NCBI GenBank assembly: GCA_041677685.1
Contig: JBAYPN010000023.1
Location: 1-11,138 of the forward strand
DNA: 11,138 bases
Source of the DNA: an archaeon
GTDB taxonomy: Archaea > Iainarchaeota > Iainarchaeia > Iainarchaeales > CSSED10-239
Direction: 5' to 3'
Both the position numbers and the translations under genes were made by a program. This document shows, in pieces, positions 1,249 through 9,252 of this stretch. The notes under the pieces were generated by a model. The model worked only from the letters and a program-made list of their open reading frames with translations. It did no database searches and was not told the origin of the DNA. Each line of letters begins with the position of its first letter. Within the stretch, counting starts at the first letter, position 1.

Positions 1249-1282
1249 CTTGAAAAGATATTTAATAGGTGTTGTGGACAAT

Positions 1283-2104
1283 ATGGACTTAAAGAAAATA
1301 ACAATAACAATTTTTATATTATTAATTTTTATAAACATCAACCATTCTGTTTTTGCAGTAAAGATATTAGAGCCTGTCTATGAGGACCTAAGATACACAA
1401 ATGTTGTTGACCTTGGGTTTGCTTCCCCTGGAGAATCTTTTTTAATTAGCTTTTTAATTGAGAAAGGAGAAGACTACACAGACATTAAAATTAATCAAGA
1501 ACAAAAACAAAAGGTAATTATTGAAAATGTGAAAAATACAAAAGAAAGTATATTTACTACAATTAAATTAGATGAAGAACTAAAAGAAGGAGAATTACTT
1601 TTAAAAATAATATTGGTTGGAAAAGAACAGCAAAAAGAAATTATCTTAAAATTAGATGTTTCTGATAAAGTCATATACACAACATTAGATGAGTATTTGG
1701 AAACTGGAAACTATGATGAACCTAAAACCATTAAGTTTAATGTCATTAATAAATCTATAACTACAAAAACAATAATTGTAAGCTCTGACTTATCTGATTA
1801 TTGGTTTAATAAAGATATTAAAAAACATAAAAAAATGTACTTAACACCAAATTCAATAACAAACATAACATACACCTTTACACCAAAAGAAATTGGAACC
1901 ACTAACTTTAAAGTTTACATCATCCCTATTATTAATGAAAAGACAATGTTTATAAACACTGATGACTATATAATTTATAATTTAAAAACAGATATTAAAA
2001 AAAGCATTAGTGGAATATACGGTACTAAGGAACACTATTTTCCTCTATTTAATAATAACCTAATACCAATTTATTTCTTTAATAAAATAATTAAATTAAT
2101 TTAA
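1283..2104 (+). CDS. Secreted or membrane-associated hypothetical protein with a CARDB/COG1361-like beta-sandwich segment
   Basis: From ATG 1283 the N-terminus is MDLKKITITIFILLIFININHSVFA|VK: a charged n-region, a hydrophobic core and an A-x-A-like cleavage site. The downstream segment PKTIKFNVINKSITTKTIIVSSDLSD...LTPNSITNITYTFTPKEIGTTNFKVYI shows the alternating pattern of adhesion-type beta-sandwiches. There are no Cys residues and no catalytic motif. The start is chosen over TTG 1250 because the signal peptide then begins at the N-terminus. Confidence 0.6.
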   Translation: MDLKKITITIFILLIFININHSVFAVKILEPVYEDLRYTNVVDLGFASPGESFLISFLIEKGEDYTDIKINQEQKQKVIIENVKNTKESIFTTIKLDEELKEGELLLKIILVGKEQQKEIILKLDVSDKVIYTTLDEYLETGNYDEPKTIKFNVINKSITTKTIIVSSDLSDYWFNKDIKKHKKMYLTPNSITNITYTFTPKEIGTTNFKVYIIPIINEKTMFINTDDYIIYNLKTDIKKSISGIYGTKEHYFPLFNNNLIPIYFFNKIIKLI

Positions 2105-2153: not shown

Positions 2154-3686
2154 ATGAATAAAAAATATATTGATCAATTAAAATCTTTTTTTCAAAAAAT
2201 AGATGTGAAGGTAATAACTAACCAAGAGCTACAAAAATTAAAATCAGACTTTGCAAAAAAACACAACCTTACAAAAATACCATTAACCTCAGACATCCTT
2301 CTAGCTCTAGAGATTAAAAATCCAACAAAGACTTTTGTAACCAAACCAAAAAGAACACTTTCAGGAGTAACTGTTATTTCTGTAATGACTAAACCTGATC
2401 CTTGCCCAGGAAAATGCATCTACTGCCCAACATATAAAGATGCACCTAAAAGCTATACAGGCTTTGAACCTGCAGCCATGAGAGGACAACTAAATAACTT
2501 TGATGCCTATAAACAGGTAAAAGAAAGACTTAGACAATTAAATTCAATTGGACACCCTACAAACAAATTAGAACTTATAGTTATGGGGGGAACTTTTCCT
2601 GCAACACCTGTAACTTACCAAAACAAATTTATAATTGACATTTATAAAGCAGTTACTGGTTCTAAAAGTAATAACATAAACACCCTTAAAAAAAAGGCAA
2701 TGACCTCTCAAAAAAGAATAATTGGACTAACCTTTGAAACAAGACCTGACTTTTGTAATAAACAAATAATTGAAAAACTTCTTATTTTTGGAGGTACAAG
2801 AGTAGAGCTTGGTGTTCAGACAACACATGATGATGTTTTTGAAATAGTCAAGAGAGGACACACAACAAAAGAGGTTATAGAGACTACAAAGTTATTAAAG
2901 GACTCAGGATTTAAGGTACTTTACCACATGATGCTTGGGCTTCCTGGAAGTAACTACAAAAAAGATCTAGAAAGCTTTAAAGAAATATTTTCTAACCCCG
3001 ATTATTGTCCTGACATGATAAAGATATACCCTTGCCTAGTAACAAAATACACAATCTTAGAAAAGATGTACTACTCAGGAGAATATAAAATTTATAGCTT
3101 TGAAAAAATAGTAAAATTGATTGCAGACATTAAAGAGATTGTGCCTAAATGGGTAAGGATTATGAGAGTGCAAAGAGATATTCCTGCAACAAAGATAATA
3201 GCAGGTATTCAAAAAAGCAATCTTAGAGAATATGTTTTTATGGAGTTAGAGAGAAGAAAAAAGAAATGTAATTGTATAAGGTGTAGAGAACCTAACAATA
3301 ATTTAAAAAATATAAACAACTATAAAATTAAAGAAATAGTTTATGAGGCATCGGGTGGAAAAGAATATTTCATATATGCAGAAAAAGAAAACTATTTGTT
3401 AGGTTTTATTAGACTAAGAGTTCCTCACAAACCATTCATAAAAGCAATTGATAAAAATACTGCAATTGTTAGAGAATTACATGTGTATGGGCAAGCAACA
3501 AACTTTGAAGATAAAAATGTACAACACCAAGGAATTGGAAAAGAATTGTTGACTCTTGCAGAAAAATATGCAAAATTTGAAAAAAAATCAAGAATTGCAG
3601 TCATCAGTGGGGTTGGAGTTAGAAAGTACTACGAGAAGCAAGGTTATAAACTTATTGAACCATATATGATTAAAAAAATAAAGTGA
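2154..3686 (+). CDS. elp3: Elp3-family tRNA uridine(34) carboxymethyl-modifying radical-SAM enzyme with a C-terminal GNAT acetyltransferase domain
   Basis: 510 aa. The radical-SAM cysteine triad is CPGKCIYC (C84/C88/C91, nt 2403-2426). Elp3-typical blocks are LELIVMGGTF, GLTFETRPD, TRVELGVQT..DDV, GH and YHMMLGLPG. There is a CNCIRCRE Cys cluster. The GNAT acetyl-CoA loop is QHQGIGKELL (nt 3522-3551), followed by VISGVGVRKYYEKQGY. Confidence 0.95.
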   Translation: MNKKYIDQLKSFFQKIDVKVITNQELQKLKSDFAKKHNLTKIPLTSDILLALEIKNPTKTFVTKPKRTLSGVTVISVMTKPDPCPGKCIYCPTYKDAPKSYTGFEPAAMRGQLNNFDAYKQVKERLRQLNSIGHPTNKLELIVMGGTFPATPVTYQNKFIIDIYKAVTGSKSNNINTLKKKAMTSQKRIIGLTFETRPDFCNKQIIEKLLIFGGTRVELGVQTTHDDVFEIVKRGHTTKEVIETTKLLKDSGFKVLYHMMLGLPGSNYKKDLESFKEIFSNPDYCPDMIKIYPCLVTKYTILEKMYYSGEYKIYSFEKIVKLIADIKEIVPKWVRIMRVQRDIPATKIIAGIQKSNLREYVFMELERRKKKCNCIRCREPNNNLKNINNYKIKEIVYEASGGKEYFIYAEKENYLLGFIRLRVPHKPFIKAIDKNTAIVRELHVYGQATNFEDKNVQHQGIGKELLTLAEKYAKFEKKSRIAVISGVGVRKYYEKQGYKLIEPYMIKKIK

Positions 3687-4027: not shown

Positions 4028-4378
4028 ATGGCAAATTTTTTAGGAGTATTGAGTATAGGAAAAGGAACTTGGGGACAAGTAGCACACATTATTGATAACT
4101 CAGAATATGAAAATGTATTCCTTGTTTCTAATGAATGGGCACAAGATAAATTTACTTGTACAAAAAAAGTAAATTGGATAATTATTGACCCAAGAAAAGG
4201 ATTTAGTGAAATTTTAGAAGACATTAGTAAACAATGGTCAGAGAAACTAGAAGACCTTGAACTTAACCTGCATTCTGGTAGTGGAAAGGAACATAGTGCT
4301 ATATTAGCAATATTAAAACAAAAAAAGATAAATTATAAGATAGTAACTATCAACGCAGATGGAATTGTGAAATATTAG
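4028..4378 (+). CDS. Orphan 116-aa cytoplasmic alpha/beta protein (Rossmann-like beta-alpha alternation); function unknown
   Basis: There is a good Shine-Dalgarno site and no signal peptide or transmembrane helix. Hydrophobic strands alternate with amphipathic helices: FLGVLSIG / QVAHIID / VFLVSN / NWIIID / FSEILEDISKQWSEKL / LELNLHSGSGKEH / SAILAILKQ / YKIVTIN. Gly-rich loops follow the first and fourth strands. I recognise no family. Confidence 0.7.
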   Translation: MANFLGVLSIGKGTWGQVAHIIDNSEYENVFLVSNEWAQDKFTCTKKVNWIIIDPRKGFSEILEDISKQWSEKLEDLELNLHSGSGKEHSAILAILKQKKINYKIVTINADGIVKY

Positions 4379-4393
4379 AATTGATATATCGAA

Positions 4394-4397
4394 GGAG
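4394..4397 (+). promoter_or_regulatory. Shine-Dalgarno site (aaGGAG) 10 nt upstream of GTG 4408
   Basis: The sequence reads cgaaGGAGtttaaaaactGTG. It supports GTG 4408 as the true start of the giant ORF rather than the TTG at 4381. Confidence 0.5.
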
Positions 4398-4407
4398 TTT
4401 AAAAACT

Positions 4408-7400
4408 GTGAAAAAATATTTAATTTTTTTTTTACTTTTAATAATACTTTCATTGTCAGGTTGTATACACTTACTTAACACACAACAAAAACAAATGTGC
4501 CTTACAGTCACACACTATTCTAAAAATAGTCTCCCTAACTGTGCAACCCAAAGTGCTTGTCTTGAGAAGGTAAATGAGATTAATTATTCTAATAAACTAC
4601 CATTCCAAATTTATAATGAATTAACTGTTTATAAAAACAATATTGCATCCACTTATCTGTTTTACAACAATAGTGTAAAGAATATAGAAAAAATAAATAA
4701 TAACTGCGACACAAATAATCCAAAGGAACTAATCGATGGGTTAAATGATTTCTTTTACTATGTAACTAATATCTTTAAATATAATGATTATGCCTCAGAA
4801 CAAAGTATAATCATCATTAAAGACCTAACTGTTTATTTACAAAACCAAGATGTAGAATTGATTCCTGAAGAAGAAATATATAATGATTATATATTGTTGA
4901 ATAAAAATTTAAATGAATTAAAGATCAACAAAAGTAATATACACTATATAAATAAACTAAACAAAGAAATTAAAAATCTACATGTAGTCGCAGAAGACTT
5001 TGGTTTTAAAAAAACATATTTGTCTGAAACAAACTACACTGATTTGATTAGCTATTATTATAATGTTGCACAAGTGCCTTCTGCTGATATTAAAATACCA
5101 AAAGCCTATCCTGCCATTAATTACTTGATCACTAATGTTTCAAAGTTAGAAACCTTAGAAAAAATTAATAAAAATTTAGGAAATGCAAATACTTATAACT
5201 TTTATTTATTATTGGATAGAATTGTTGGAACTAAAGATTCTGTGCATACAGATTTTGTAGAAATTGTAAACAGATTTAATAGAAATTATGATACTATTTT
5301 TTTAAAAATTAAAGAACTTGAAAAAAACATTTCTGAAAATAAGGATTATCTTTTAGATGAAAGATATAATGACTTTTTGGTAGAGAAAAGAAACTTTGAA
5401 AATAAAGAAATTAGCTTTGGAAAATATCTAGCTGATTTAAAAATTATAGAAAATGAAATCTATAATAATAAAATTACATCTCAGATAGATGATGAAGAGA
5501 AAAGTAAAGAGTTGTTAGCTTGTCAAGAACTTATCTTAGAAGCAAAAAACTATAAAAATCCATATTTTAAAAACAAAATTAAAGAATATGAAAACACAGA
5601 TAATTATAATGTGAAGATAGAAATTTGTAATCAACTAGAAGTTAGTTTGCAAAATGAAAGTTGCCTTGAAGAATTAAAAACTGTGCAAGAATCTGAAAAA
5701 ATCAATTTTGAAGAATTTCTATTTTTAAAAATAAATGATGTTTTTGAATGTAATGAATATCTGCAAACTATTAATCAAAAGTTAGAAGGGGATTCAACCT
5801 TAGTGTACATAAACAAACTGATTTTAGAAAACAAAAAAATAATCTCTGAAATCAAGAATAAAGAAAAAACCTTAAAACAAGATTCTGAAATATTAGATCT
5901 TGAAAATAAAGTTGATGTTGATCGGTTGTTACAAAATTATAAAAAAATAATTAATTCAGAAAATATTATTAAACAAGAATTAGAGATTAATGGCTTGTTA
6001 CTTGACATCACCAAACAATTAATAAATAATGAAAAGTATACTTTTGAAATTGTAAATAACAAATATTATTTTACACTTACTAATCCTTTCTCTTTTAACC
6101 TAGAGGGGGTGGTTTACACACAAGTGCCTATCTCTGACAAGATTATAAGTAAAGATAACTTACTTACAATAAAAAAAAATAAGATATATTTACAAAAATT
6201 ATTGCCAAACAAAAATTATTATCAAGTAGAAATTGAAAATCACAAAAATATTATTAGAGAAATAATTAAATTAGATTTAGATAAGACAATTGTGAGATTA
6301 ATCATAACTAATGATGTTATTAATTTTATAGACACTTTTTATTTACCTAAAAACCTAATCATTACAAGCAGTAACACTGAATATTCTTTAGTAGAAGAAA
6401 ATGAAAATAGAACTTTGAGATATCTTACAAAAGAACAGACAGAATTTATATATGTAGCTGATGTTTTAGAGAACAATCCTGAAATTGAAAATATAGAAAT
6501 GTTGACAGAAGAAAAATATATTATCACAAGTCATTTTAGTTTAAAAAACATCTTTGAAGAAGATATTATTACCACCCCAGTAACAATTTACAAAATAGAT
6601 AGTGATGATGAGATAATTGTTAAAGAAAATAATAAAGAGGTTTATTTTGAAAAAGAAAATAACAGCATAAATATTAATTTAAGTCTTAAAAGGAATGAAA
6701 CTAAAAACTACACCTTACAAATACTTAAAGACAAAGATGGGGTTTTAGAAGAGATCCAAGAACTGAACCTAATTATTAATGACTTAAAGTTAAGCTATTT
6801 TGAAGATGTGCAAAAAATAATTAATTTAAATAAATTTTTGCAACTTGACACAGAAAAAATTGATTATTCCTTTGAAGATATAAAACAATATTATTCTTTA
6901 AAACAAGAAATCTATGATGTCTTGAAATTAGAAACTGAAAATAGAATTGTTGAACAAAAATATATTAGCTTACACTCTGAGCTTTTAGAAAAATTAGATG
7001 AAGAAGAACTTCTAAAATTAAGTGAAATTGATTATGATAAATATAAAAATATCAAATATAGTTTGTATCTTTTAGAAAATCTAAAACAAAAAATAATAAT
7101 AAAAAATAAAAAAGAAACAGATAAATTGATTGAAGAAAATATAACTAAACAAAGAGAAGTTGAAAATAAAATAAGTTACTTAGAAAATGAAGATGTTAAA
7201 AACAAATTGTTAAAAGAAATTACAAACATTAACTTTGATGAAAATAATCAAACCCTATTTTCAAATATTTTAGAGAAAGTAAATAACTCTGCAAAAACAG
7301 AAGCTACAACTATATATGAGCTACTAATTAAACTTGATAACATCATAGAAGAAGACACCACAAACAAACTATTAGAGGATATTGAATGGTTGTATGAAGA

Positions 7401-7956
7401 TTATGGTTTACAACAAATATATGCTGTTAAATATTATCCATTAATTACTCTTAAAGATTTAGAAAGATATGTTAAAAAACAGGATTTCTTGGACACGCAG
7501 ACTTATAAAAAACTTTACTATAAATTTGTAGAAAACTATGAAGAAAAAGATTATGTTTCTGCAATTAATTCTATAGACAAAGTTACAATTAATAGGTTGG
7601 TGGAGATAAATGCTGAAAAAGAATTATTGGAGAATGGGTTAGAACAGATTAAGAGAGATTCAAAAGAAATATTAAATAATTTTATTGAAGAAAATTCTGA
7701 TAACGAAAATATACAAGGAATAATCTCAAAGGCGGTTGGTTTTTATGACTCTAAAAAATATCTAAATATAATTATTCTACTTAAAAATAATTCAGAAATT
7801 AAAGACCAAAATGAGAACACTTCTAAAAAACAAATCATAATTATTTTGATATTCTTAATCATACTTTTCTTACTCTATATTCTATTAAATACTAAGAAAA
7901 ATAAAAAGAAAGAAACAAAAATAAATAAGAAAAAAAAGATATTAAAAAATAACTAA
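4408..7956 (+). CDS. Giant (1,182 aa) orphan envelope protein: lipoprotein-type signal peptide, Cys-containing N-terminal region, beta-rich middle, long helical or coiled-coil-like C-terminal half, C-terminal TM anchor with poly-Lys tail
   Basis: From GTG 4408 the N-terminus is MKKYLIFFLLLIILSLSG|C, with lipobox LSGC at nt 4453-4464. Eight further Cys residues all lie between ORF-track residues 40 and 457 (nt 4498-5751), and there are none afterwards. A beta-pattern region spans about nt 6031-6735, for example YTFEIVNNKYYFTLTNPFSFNLEGVVYTQVP and ININLSLKRNETKNYTLQIL. E/K/L/I/N-rich helical stretches lie on either side. The hydrophobic helix IIIILIFLIILFLLYILL (nt 7834-7887) is followed by NTKKNKKKETKINKKKKILKNN. 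No enzymatic motif is recognised. Confidence 0.85.
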   Translation: MKKYLIFFLLLIILSLSGCIHLLNTQQKQMCLTVTHYSKNSLPNCATQSACLEKVNEINYSNKLPFQIYNELTVYKNNIASTYLFYNNSVKNIEKINNNCDTNNPKELIDGLNDFFYYVTNIFKYNDYASEQSIIIIKDLTVYLQNQDVELIPEEEIYNDYILLNKNLNELKINKSNIHYINKLNKEIKNLHVVAEDFGFKKTYLSETNYTDLISYYYNVAQVPSADIKIPKAYPAINYLITNVSKLETLEKINKNLGNANTYNFYLLLDRIVGTKDSVHTDFVEIVNRFNRNYDTIFLKIKELEKNISENKDYLLDERYNDFLVEKRNFENKEISFGKYLADLKIIENEIYNNKITSQIDDEEKSKELLACQELILEAKNYKNPYFKNKIKEYENTDNYNVKIEICNQLEVSLQNESCLEELKTVQESEKINFEEFLFLKINDVFECNEYLQTINQKLEGDSTLVYINKLILENKKIISEIKNKEKTLKQDSEILDLENKVDVDRLLQNYKKIINSENIIKQELEINGLLLDITKQLINNEKYTFEIVNNKYYFTLTNPFSFNLEGVVYTQVPISDKIISKDNLLTIKKNKIYLQKLLPNKNYYQVEIENHKNIIREIIKLDLDKTIVRLIITNDVINFIDTFYLPKNLIITSSNTEYSLVEENENRTLRYLTKEQTEFIYVADVLENNPEIENIEMLTEEKYIITSHFSLKNIFEEDIITTPVTIYKIDSDDEIIVKENNKEVYFEKENNSININLSLKRNETKNYTLQILKDKDGVLEEIQELNLIINDLKLSYFEDVQKIINLNKFLQLDTEKIDYSFEDIKQYYSLKQEIYDVLKLETENRIVEQKYISLHSELLEKLDEEELLKLSEIDYDKYKNIKYSLYLLENLKQKIIIKNKKETDKLIEENITKQREVENKISYLENEDVKNKLLKEITNINFDENNQTLFSNILEKVNNSAKTEATTIYELLIKLDNIIEEDTTNKLLEDIEWLYEDYGLQQIYAVKYYPLITLKDLERYVKKQDFLDTQTYKKLYYKFVENYEEKDYVSAINSIDKVTINRLVEINAEKELLENGLEQIKRDSKEILNNFIEENSDNENIQGIISKAVGFYDSKKYLNIIILLKNNSEIKDQNENTSKKQIIIILIFLIILFLLYILLNTKKNKKKETKINKKKKILKNN
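4424..4433 (+). repeat. T10 homopolymer inside the signal-peptide coding region of the giant gene
   Basis: The sequence tta aTT TTT TTT TTa ctt encodes L-I-F-F-L. It is the longest homopolymer run I noticed in the window; other runs I saw are 9 nt or shorter. Confidence 0.9.
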
Positions 7957-8079: not shown

Positions 8080-9252
8080 ATGTATAGACTAATTAAAGTG
8101 TTTTCAATAATTTTAATAATAAGTATATTTTTTAGTAGCCTTAGTTATGCATCTGTAATTGATGAAAAACAATTTAAGGACTTTGGATATCTAGATAATG
8201 CAATTGAAAAAAACCAAAATAAATGTTATGAATACACAAATATTGAATTAAACACAGAACCTAATTACTCAACAGTATTACAATTAAAGATTAAAAACTA
8301 TATTCCTGTTAATGATGGTGTAACAATATCTATTTATTTGAATGATATTATAGAAAAAACAATAGCCAATAAAGATATTAAGGAAAAAAATATTATACCT
8401 TTAAATAAACTTAAAAATAATAATTCTTTAAAAATATGTGTGGATAACTCTTTTCTACCAACAATCACAATCTCAAAAGAAAGCACCATTGGAACATATC
8501 TTCTTGCAGAGATAAAAGAAGAAAACTTTTTTCAAACAATACAAAGTACTGTGCCTATAAATAAATTAATCCCAATTATAGTTTCTGTAAAAAATACTGG
8601 TTATGATAGCATCTACATTGAGTTAGATAATGCAAATAACTTATATATTGAAAACTCAAAGTTAAAAAATGTTTCAGGAGATGTTGAGTATAAGGGCTTA
8701 CTTGCCCCAAACGAAACTAAGACACTTACCTATTATTTTAAAACAAATAATGAAGCAAACTTAGCAACCCCCAGAGCAATCCTTAATTACACAACAGAAT
8801 TTGGAGAAGCTATTAAACTTTTAACAACTCCTGAGATTATTAAAGGTTATGAAGATCAATCTAAATTAGAAGTTTTTATAGATGTTTCTAAAGAGAATGT
8901 TGTAGAGCAAGAGTTATATGGAAAACTTATACTAAGAAATGTTTCAGAAAATGTCTTAAAAGATGTTTATATAATATCAAATTTTAATGGAACTATTGAA
9001 CTTGAAAAAAATAAAGTATATGAAATAAAGCCAAAAGATGTTATTGAAATTCCATTTAAGATTAAAACTTATGAAATTAAAGATTATAGATTAAATTTTA
9101 ATGTATATTATTTTACAAACGATTTAGAAAAAAATATTGGAACAAATGAAATAATAATAAAGTCAGTTGACCAAGATAACACTTTAACAAAATTAATTGC
9201 TAGTCTGCTAATTATTAGTGCAATCTTATTTATTTGGATTGTAAAATTTTAA
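8080..9252 (+). CDS. Type-I membrane-anchored surface protein with two CARDB/COG1361-like beta-sandwich segments
   Basis: From ATG 8080 the N-terminus is MYRLIKVFSIILIISIFFSSLSYA|SV, a classic signal peptide. The CARDB-like strings are LIPIIVSVKNTGYDSIYIELDN...LAPNETKTLTYYFKT and YGKLILRNVSENVLKDVYIISN...IKPKDVIEIPFKIKT. There are two Cys residues in the N-terminal part. The C-terminal TM helix LIASLLIISAILFIWIV (nt 9193-9243) is followed by KF*. ATG 8056 is possible but adds 8 residues ahead of the signal peptide and overlaps the TATA-like element. Confidence 0.8.
   Translation: MYRLIKVFSIILIISIFFSSLSYASVIDEKQFKDFGYLDNAIEKNQNKCYEYTNIELNTEPNYSTVLQLKIKNYIPVNDGVTISIYLNDIIEKTIANKDIKEKNIIPLNKLKNNNSLKICVDNSFLPTITISKESTIGTYLLAEIKEENFFQTIQSTVPINKLIPIIVSVKNTGYDSIYIELDNANNLYIENSKLKNVSGDVEYKGLLAPNETKTLTYYFKTNNEANLATPRAILNYTTEFGEAIKLLTTPEIIKGYEDQSKLEVFIDVSKENVVEQELYGKLILRNVSENVLKDVYIISNFNGTIELEKNKVYEIKPKDVIEIPFKIKTYEIKDYRLNFNVYYFTNDLEKNIGTNEIIIKSVDQDNTLTKLIASLLIISAILFIWIVKF

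Follow-up and report, generated by a model that had tools for sequence, protein, structure and literature searches.

The locus and its protein family

The stretch of DNA analyzed here, referred to throughout as the window, comprises 11,138 nucleotides of contig JBAYPN010000023.1 (assembly GCA_041677685.1) from an archaeon of the phylum Iainarchaeota. It has a GC content of approximately 25% and carries housekeeping genes that encode an SPFH/Band 7 fragment, TYW3, ELP3, a winged helix-turn-helix (wHTH) protein and MutL. Among them lies a long open reading frame on the forward strand (positions 4381-7956), which, when translated from a GTG codon at position 4408, yields a protein of 1,182 amino acids (hereafter, the target). 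An earlier reading made from the sequence alone had described this protein as an orphan that starts at a GTG codon preceded by a Shine-Dalgarno sequence, is tethered to the membrane at both ends and possesses no catalytic motif or recognizable family. The proposed start is upheld by a GGAG sequence at positions 4393-4396 and by an independent gene call in a public protein collection (P0001), which is 100% identical to the target, 1,182 amino acids in length and begins at the same GTG codon. The target gene is real and appears to encode a cell-envelope protein that is conserved in Iainarchaeota, a phylum of DPANN archaea. The features of the target and of the conserved partner gene that follows it are listed below, where AF2 denotes AlphaFold2 and pLDDT denotes the predicted local distance difference test score.

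4393-4396, forward strand: GGAG, Shine-Dalgarno-like, 11 nucleotides before the GTG, read from the sequence
4408-7956, forward strand: target gene, 1,182-amino-acid envelope protein, stop codon at 7954-7956, from the list of open reading frames and family alignments
4408-4464, forward strand: predicted signal peptide with lipobox, consisting of an MKK n-region, a hydrophobic core and LSG followed by C19
4465-5307, forward strand: N-terminal helical signature domain, residues 20-300, with invariant C31, C45, C51 and C100
5308-6027, forward strand: second helical region, residues 301-540, with C372, C407, C419 and C448, pLDDT mostly 77-92
6040-6726, forward strand: central beta region, presumed distal tip, residues 545-773, from DSSP strands on the AF2 model
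6733-7797, forward strand: C-terminal helical arm, residues 776-1130, from helices in the AF2 model
7831-7887, forward strand: predicted C-terminal transmembrane helix, residues 1142-1160, Kyte-Doolittle maximum 3.34, also a helix in the AF2 model
7894-7953, forward strand: basic tail, predicted to be cytoplasmic, KKNKKKETKINKKKKILKNN, read from the sequence
8080-9252, forward strand: p398/p390, conserved partner gene, 390 amino acids, start as in the identical database protein P0159

The description of the target as an orphan proved to be incorrect. A word-indexed search recovered 13 full-length homologs of 1,126-1,186 amino acids that share 30-37% identity with the target, together with one distant match, and a profile of homologs scored against 1.84 billion cluster representatives (clustered at 50% identity) identified 208 proteins at E≤1e-3, of which 189 also pass E≤1e-10. 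Members of these 208 clusters are mostly 900-1,430 amino acids in length and fall into subfamilies of 45, 24 (the target's own), 15 and 10 members plus smaller groups. All named sources are metagenome-assembled genomes designated Candidatus Iainarchaeum, ainarchaeum or Diapherotrites, which assigns the family to the Iainarchaeota, a phylum of the DPANN group (Nanobdellati). Some members reside on contigs of 0.95-1.24 Mb, consistent with small genomes, and the archaeal small-genome host that the sequence-only reading had raised as a condition thus finds its counterpart in a DPANN lineage. Searches of Pfam and NCBIfam with the target and 41 diverse members of the family (15-37% identity to the target) returned no consistent family, and PDB sequence and profile searches gave just generic helical-bundle or apolipoprotein-like noise (E≥0.005), in line with the earlier failure to recognize a known family or catalytic motif. 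Our literature search likewise found nothing relevant on surface or S-layer (surface layer) proteins of Iainarchaeota or Diapherotrites. Collectively, these data define an uncharacterized, lineage-specific family of surface proteins in which the combination of anchors is unusual, albeit not unprecedented.

Predicted membrane anchors and fold, and the conserved ends

Just two hydrophobic segments of the target exceed the Kyte-Doolittle threshold, one at each end of the chain (residues 1-26 and 1137-1165). The N-terminus, MKKYLIFFLLLIILSLSG followed by C19, conforms to the classical lipobox pattern. Parsed as MKK-YLIFFLLLIIL-SLSG-C19, it contains each of the elements by which lipobox lipoproteins are recognized, namely a positive n-region, an uncharged hydrophobic core, the motif [LVI][ASTVI][GAS]C and a cysteine positioned approximately 15-35 residues from the start. 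In an alignment of the 41 diverse members, all share C19 and at least 90% share G18, and the textbook lipoprotein signal claimed in the sequence-only reading is in good agreement with both the LSG-C19 sequence and this invariance. A strict lipoprotein regular expression is matched by 81 of 126 members; those that fail it are mostly LFGC, LLGC and SSGC variants or mis-called starts, and the core of most of them still ends in x-x-G-C. The target's own weak match in NCBIfam is to lipo_NF038104, a bacterial lipoprotein signal-peptide family (E 0.15, residues 1-21), and the weak matches of several other members are also to bacterial lipoprotein families, which anecdotally would favor a lipobox. The arrangement is not that of a type IV pilin-like class III signal, given that the hydrophobic core precedes the G-C pair and that the target has no match to the Class_IIIsignal Pfam model, a model that did detect a gene neighboring the target homolog at another locus (L014).

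The lysine-containing n-region, the hydrophobic core and the invariant Gly-Cys pair at its end suggest that the target would be exported through Sec and modified at Cys19. Lipidation of lipobox proteins in Haloferax volcanii requires AliA and AliB (arCOG02177/02178), and archaeal lipobox cysteines carry thioether-linked archaeol (PMC12462473), such that the earlier remark that lipobox processing in archaea is an open matter is partly outdated. The same study predicts lipoproteins to be widespread among DPANN archaea, where AliA is present, with gaps (PMC12462473). As a separate observation, a seven-transmembrane membrane gene with a DUF373 domain (PF04123) lies approximately 5 kb upstream of one target homolog (L003:1550-2851, reverse strand) and might encode the AliA-type lipidation enzyme (arCOG02177).

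At the other end of the protein, the second hydrophobic segment contains a single helix of approximately 19 residues near the C-terminus and is followed by KKNKKKETKINKKKKILKNN, a positively charged tail with 12 lysines in 20 residues, as is typical of bitopic proteins held by a stop-transfer helix. The C-terminal transmembrane segment is kept in 118 of 125 full-length members, across which the tail has a median length of 22 amino acids with nine lysine or arginine residues, and the chain closes with hydrophobic-hydrophobic-[RK]-[HNK]-x in about 41% of members compared to 14% of shuffled tails. The target lacks the PGF, PEF and VPXXXP motifs of archaeosortase substrates and, even at E≤1, NCBIfam models of CTERM sorting signals matched none of the 41 diverse members. 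The C-terminal helix and its strongly basic tail are predicted to act as a stop-transfer anchor that leaves the tail on the cytoplasmic side. This is the topology that had been put forward from the sequence, and the retention of this anchor with its basic tail across the family, along with the invariance of C19, supports the proposal that the target is tethered at both ends.

The target contains cysteines at residues 19, 31, 45, 51, 100, 372, 407, 419 and 448 and none elsewhere. C19, C31, C45, C51 and C100 are invariant among the 41 diverse members, and C372, C407, C419 and C448 are each kept in at least 90%, so that the number of conserved cysteines outside of the signal is even and fits the formation of extracytoplasmic disulfides. 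The eight non-lipobox cysteines are confined to the N-terminal part of the protein, as had been noted before, but at residues 31-448; the range of 40-457 given previously was counted from an upstream TTG codon. The domain spanning residues 20-300 also carries a LIPEEE-Y-DYILLN-NLNEL motif. A second conserved module takes up the final ~230 residues of the chain, with the motif YYP-IT--D--R-EKK-KFLDT and invariant D1017, R1020, K1023 and A1052. When profiles of the target's subfamily were compared to 101 distant full-length members, profile positions ~1-300 were matched in about 100% of them and positions ~950-1178 in about 35-38%, and the middle was unmatched. Both ends are also the best conserved parts within the subfamily. 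By these profile matches, only the two ends, which are predicted to be membrane-proximal, are conserved across the family and the middle is variable.

We next consider the predicted fold of the target. The AF2 model, built on a 13-sequence alignment, has a mean pLDDT of 73 and a predicted template modeling (pTM) score of 0.38, with residues 1-50 and 198-263 being of low confidence and unreliable. It places helices at residues ~60-540, strands at residues 545-773, further helices at residues 776-1130 and a transmembrane helix at residues 1142-1160. The central block, which lies near the midpoint of the chain, is read as two immunoglobulin-like (Ig-like) beta sandwiches in this model, and its strands (nucleotides 6040-6726) coincide with the beta-sandwich-like middle that the sequence-only reading had placed at nucleotides 6031-6735. 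The flanking helices are 10-42 residues long and separated by loops, the longest measuring 37-42 residues in a model that is only moderately confident, and the flanks consequently look like helical bundles rather than a long coiled coil. The coiled-coil-like character proposed earlier for these flanks holds only loosely. Comparison of eight slices of the target using hhalign revealed no internal duplication and no spectrin-like repeats. Nor do the N-x-S/T sequons noted in the middle of the protein carry weight, as 17 are observed compared to approximately 14 expected from composition, which amounts to no enrichment. Foldseek searches of PDB and BFVD with the full-length target model yielded no match at E≤1e-3. 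The best, non-significant matches are two-sandwich folds aligned to the beta block (the AP2 mu2 C-domain, Fab and titin Ig pairs). The top PDB match, 8b6l_O (a subunit of the OST/TRAP translocon, E 0.037), and AP2 mu2 were both taken as generic beta-sandwich likeness.

The partner protein p398 and a proposed surface module

The gene downstream of the target encodes p398, a protein with a cleavable-looking signal peptide, two invariant cysteines and a transmembrane helix at its extreme C-terminus. Its AF2 model (pLDDT 86) consists of three Ig-like beta sandwiches, and Foldseek matches to it, with E-values down to 2.5e-10, include tandem Ig-like/ASH domains of the hydin/CFAP type, transglutaminase C-terminal domains, the CEP192 SPD-2 domain and RbmA. 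Its resemblance to Ig-like/ASH-PapD-like and CARDB-like domains is one of fold (E 1e-10 to 1e-7) at 7-15% identity and indicates nothing specific to function. Weak Pfam matches of p398 to Transglut_C and Cep192_D4 do not rise above the family thresholds, and no catalytic domain was found in it. Its domains also bear no significant homology to the tip domains of the target. A number of wHTH proteins drawn into the p398 profile by jackhmmer were judged to reflect compositional drift.

A p398 homolog is located directly downstream of the target homolog in 28 of 28 loci whose downstream sequence extends for at least ~1 kb, in a co-directional orientation in 11 loci, which belong to the target's subfamily, and in a convergent orientation in 17 loci, which represent all others. 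Close relatives of the target keep a block that consists of genes for Band 7, TYW3 (reverse strand), p284, ELP3, wHTH, p116, the target, p398, MutL and MutS (both reverse strand), Trm56 and TFIIE-alpha. In other subfamilies, the context is instead made up of genes for NFACT_N, a PRC-barrel protein, a small cysteine-containing membrane protein, AMMECR1, the target homolog, the p398 homolog (reverse strand), an AAA_18 kinase and an S24-like peptidase. The p398 homolog is the one gene common to both genomic contexts and this arrangement is suggestive of a functional pair, as far as gene order can tell. Of the three neighbors named in the sequence-only reading, it is accordingly the 390-amino-acid protein that is kept; the wHTH and small (p116) proteins are found only in close relatives of the target and were rejected as conserved partners.

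Based on these observations, we propose that the target and p398 constitute a structural surface module made of a double-anchored hairpin stalk and its bitopic partner, a proposal whose chances we judge to be evenly balanced. The target would be exported through Sec and lipid-modified on Cys19, presumably by an AliA/AliB-type archaeal pathway, and a stop-transfer helix would hold its C-terminus in the membrane, leaving the lysine-rich tail in the cytoplasm. Because both anchors would sit in the same membrane, the ectodomain of approximately 1,120 residues must then fold back on itself. A helical N-terminal arm stabilized by disulfides among the eight conserved cysteines would lead away from the membrane to two Ig-like sandwiches that form the distal tip, and a helical C-terminal arm would lead back to it. 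Such a hairpin or arch fits the conservation of both ends, the variability of a central Ig-like block near the midpoint and the restriction of all eight cysteines to the N-terminal arm. The conserved N- and C-terminal modules next to the membrane probably pack together and contact p398. Together the two proteins might coat the cell, act as a spacer or fix an outer layer in place, and the exposed tip of the target would evolve fast. The analysis documents the integrity of the gene, the size of its family, the conservation of both anchors and of the cysteines, the predicted arrangement of secondary structure, the modeled fold of p398 and the pairing of the two genes; we infer lipidation, hairpin packing, physical contact between the target and p398, and the structural role itself. 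We favor a structural role over others because the gene is conserved, syntenic and apparently phylum-wide amid housekeeping genes, is accompanied by an equally conserved partner and encodes no adhesion or enzymatic domain.

Several observations weigh against this proposal. The target and p398 are both membrane-anchored, unlike a classical S-layer canopy, and no lattice-forming or S-layer-type domain was found with Pfam and Foldseek or among the 41 diverse members. The target model rests on 13 sequences, has a pTM of 0.38 and is unreliable over residues 1-50 and 198-263. In addition, the loci outside the window's subfamily share wider synteny with one another, so that the pairing of the target with p398 represents roughly two independent contexts plus an inversion, not 28 independent cases. 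As a somewhat unlikely extension of the structural proposal, the two proteins could form a phylum-wide, undescribed envelope apparatus in which a lipid- and transmembrane-anchored hairpin stalk presents a rapidly evolving Ig-like head and a conserved cytoplasmic tail motif links it to the interior of the cell. If this were true, the apparatus might replace or anchor the S-layer of Iainarchaeota or mediate contact with partner cells, and the family would be the first in which double anchoring by a lipobox and a transmembrane helix is an invariant, selected feature.

The variable tip and the DPANN lineage make an adhesin or host-contact protein the main rival to the structural proposal, and we consider it unlikely. 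The stalk would in this case present a variable Ig-like tip to another cell or surface, with p398 acting as a co-receptor or scaffold. It would account for the target being the fastest-evolving gene of its neighborhood, with a mean identity among close relatives of 34% compared to 55-74% for Band 7, TYW3, ELP3, p116 and MutL and 42% for two secreted neighbors. It would also accommodate a tip and middle that are not conserved between subfamilies, a length that ranges from 900 to 1,430 amino acids and the fact that the tip and p398 are both built of Ig-like domains. The lineage is DPANN, with contigs of ~1-1.2 Mb, and a protein of this kind would be expected in it if these archaea were episymbiotic. 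Adhesins are more often patchy in distribution, present in multiple copies and equipped with recognizable adhesion domains, whereas the target gene occurs once in every locus examined, is syntenic among housekeeping genes and apparently phylum-wide, and Pfam searches of the target and the 41 diverse members found no adhesion domains. A chance open reading frame, annotation artifact or decaying gene in an AT-rich genome is effectively refuted. The composition of the target is indeed strongly biased (L, I, K, N or E account for 59% of residues in a window of 25% GC) and one metagenomic homolog has two in-frame TAA codons (L022:4946-4963), which may reflect a pseudogene or an assembly error. Set against this are 125 full-length homologs with conserved motifs, cysteines and anchors and with E-values down to 0. 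Routine frameshifting or truncation, which the sequence-only reading had named as a sign of decay, is not seen, as only 1 of the 42 homolog loci examined carries a genuine interruption; a second homolog (L032) is split in appearance only, owing to N-rich sequence of poor quality.

The two remaining alternatives concern the anchors. The N-terminus could be an uncleaved signal anchor, giving a hairpin with two transmembrane helices, both termini in the cytoplasm and Cys19 put to another use such as a disulfide at the membrane surface. Lipidation of the target is a prediction, AliA has gaps in DPANN archaea (PMC12462473) and many members have atypical residues at positions -3 and -2 (LFGC, LLGC, FFGC), leaving the strict bacterial pattern to 81 of 126. 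We nonetheless regard a signal anchor as fairly improbable, since the end of the hydrophobic core is followed by a glycine and then a cysteine at +1 that is invariant in the 41 diverse members, the nine conserved cysteines form an odd number that leaves one unpaired, as expected of a lipidated cysteine, and the target's only near-match in NCBIfam is to a family of lipoprotein signal peptides. It is highly improbable, in our estimation, that the C-terminal helix and tail instead constitute a sorting signal cut by an archaeosortase-like enzyme, whereupon the mature protein would be held by its lipid or transferred. The order of motif, transmembrane helix and basic cluster does resemble sortase-type signals, and subfamilies other than that of the window carry hydrophobic-P-x4-P-[LI] where the helix has its outer edge. 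Against such processing are the absence of PGF, PEF or VPXXXP in the target and of CTERM model matches in the 41 members, as well as a tail of ~22 amino acids with its own conserved terminal motif, which is unlike the short tails of sorting signals.

The structural proposal can be set beside several known systems. SlaB, the membrane-anchored S-layer stalk of Sulfolobales, carries a Sec signal and combines beta-sandwich domains with a long stalk of helices and a C-terminal transmembrane helix, and its gene adjoins that of SlaA; it is not known to have a lipobox, it has a single anchor, and its beta domains are N-terminal and free. The target resembles SlaB in being an envelope protein with helical regions, beta sandwiches, a C-terminal transmembrane helix and a gene beside that of a partner, but its beta domains are central, both of its ends would be anchored and there is no sequence or fold match between the two. 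Similarly, p398 is small and membrane-anchored, unlike the large canopy protein SlaA. More broadly, no significant profile or fold similarity to known archaeal S-layer families (Pfam and NCBIfam domains, SlaA and SlaB folds) was detected. EsaA/YueB/PIP-type proteins of Firmicutes, which are polytopic bacterial proteins belonging or related to the type VIIb secretion apparatus, have an ectodomain between membrane anchors that folds into an elongated hairpin of helices whose distal tip is rich in beta structure. The target would share their up-and-back geometry, differs in having a lipobox N-terminal anchor instead of transmembrane helices at both ends and exhibits no homology to them. Substrates of the PGF-CTERM/archaeosortase system, such as the haloarchaeal S-layer glycoprotein, have a C-terminal hydrophobic helix, basic residues and possibly a lipid anchor. 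The helix and basic residues are found in the target as well, without a PGF motif or CTERM match and with a tail that is long and conserved. Lastly, the target has in common with archaeal lipobox lipoproteins that are AliA/AliB substrates, for example HVO_1176 of Haloferax volcanii, a lysine-rich n-region, a hydrophobic core and [L][S][G]C, and this predicted lipobox signal is the sole defining feature of a known class that it displays. These lipoproteins are anchored by lipid only, and a C-terminally transmembrane-anchored protein served as the non-lipoprotein control in the study concerned (PMC12462473). By contrast, the target combines both anchors in one chain, conserved family-wide, and has no sequence homology to characterized lipoproteins.

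What is new here is a conserved pair of surface proteins across Iainarchaeota in which the anchors are clear, the disulfide cysteines are conserved and the exposed tip is variable. To our knowledge, very little has been learned about the molecules that make up DPANN cell envelopes, and no member of the Iainarchaeota is in culture. The target provides a natural test case for the newly found AliA/AliB pathway outside of haloarchaea and for the benefit of a lipid anchor where a transmembrane helix already holds the protein. Current concepts are left unchanged by these findings unless the function of the target proves to be unusual.

Neighboring genes in the window and at other loci

Within the window, the wHTH gene starts at a GTG that overlaps the stop codon of ELP3 (positions 3683-3686), the wHTH gene is followed after 24 nucleotides by p116, and p116 is followed after 29 nucleotides by the target. 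The overlap and the two short gaps suggest that one transcript covers ELP3, wHTH, p116 and the target in the target's subfamily, and the gap of 29 nucleotides makes co-transcription likely for p116 and the target. The p398 gene begins after an AT-rich spacer of ~120 nucleotides on the 3' side of the target.

The product of p116 (positions 4028-4378, forward strand; 116 amino acids) is the best conserved of the block, with 68-79% identity among close relatives and the invariant motifs GKGTWGQVAH and HSGSGKEHS, and has no match in Pfam, NCBIfam or PDB. A nucleotide- or ligand-binding role (CARF/Rossmann-like) for this protein is a mere guess on our part. A 116-amino-acid gene found upstream of distant target homologs was rejected as a p116 homolog, as it encodes a small, unrelated membrane protein. 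In all of the other subfamilies, a small protein of 80-116 amino acids is encoded just 5' of the target homolog (L017:9534-9884, L013:9050-9307 and 17 other loci) and has a single transmembrane segment, conserved cysteines and a weak CX9C-like Pfam match. It could be a third component in these subfamilies, and no homolog of it is detectable in the window.

The p284 gene (positions 1250-2104, forward strand), which is found only in the close subfamily, encodes a protein with a signal peptide and weak Ig-like Pfam matches. Aligned to p398 with hhalign, it gave a probability of 49% and an E-value of 1.7e-4 in a region spanning the signal peptide and first two domains, and it may be a remote paralog of p398. 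At the L014 locus of an Iainarchaeota metagenome-assembled genome, a gene on the reverse strand (L014:1088-5449) that is divergent from the target homolog encodes a further large surface protein of the phylum, 1,453 amino acids long, whose signal peptide is of class III (pilin-type) and which contains a BACON_2 domain. Beyond the p398 homolog in the other subfamilies lie the AAA_18 kinase gene and a gene for a short S24/S26-like peptidase (L013:15333-15746, reverse strand), possibly a type I signal peptidase.

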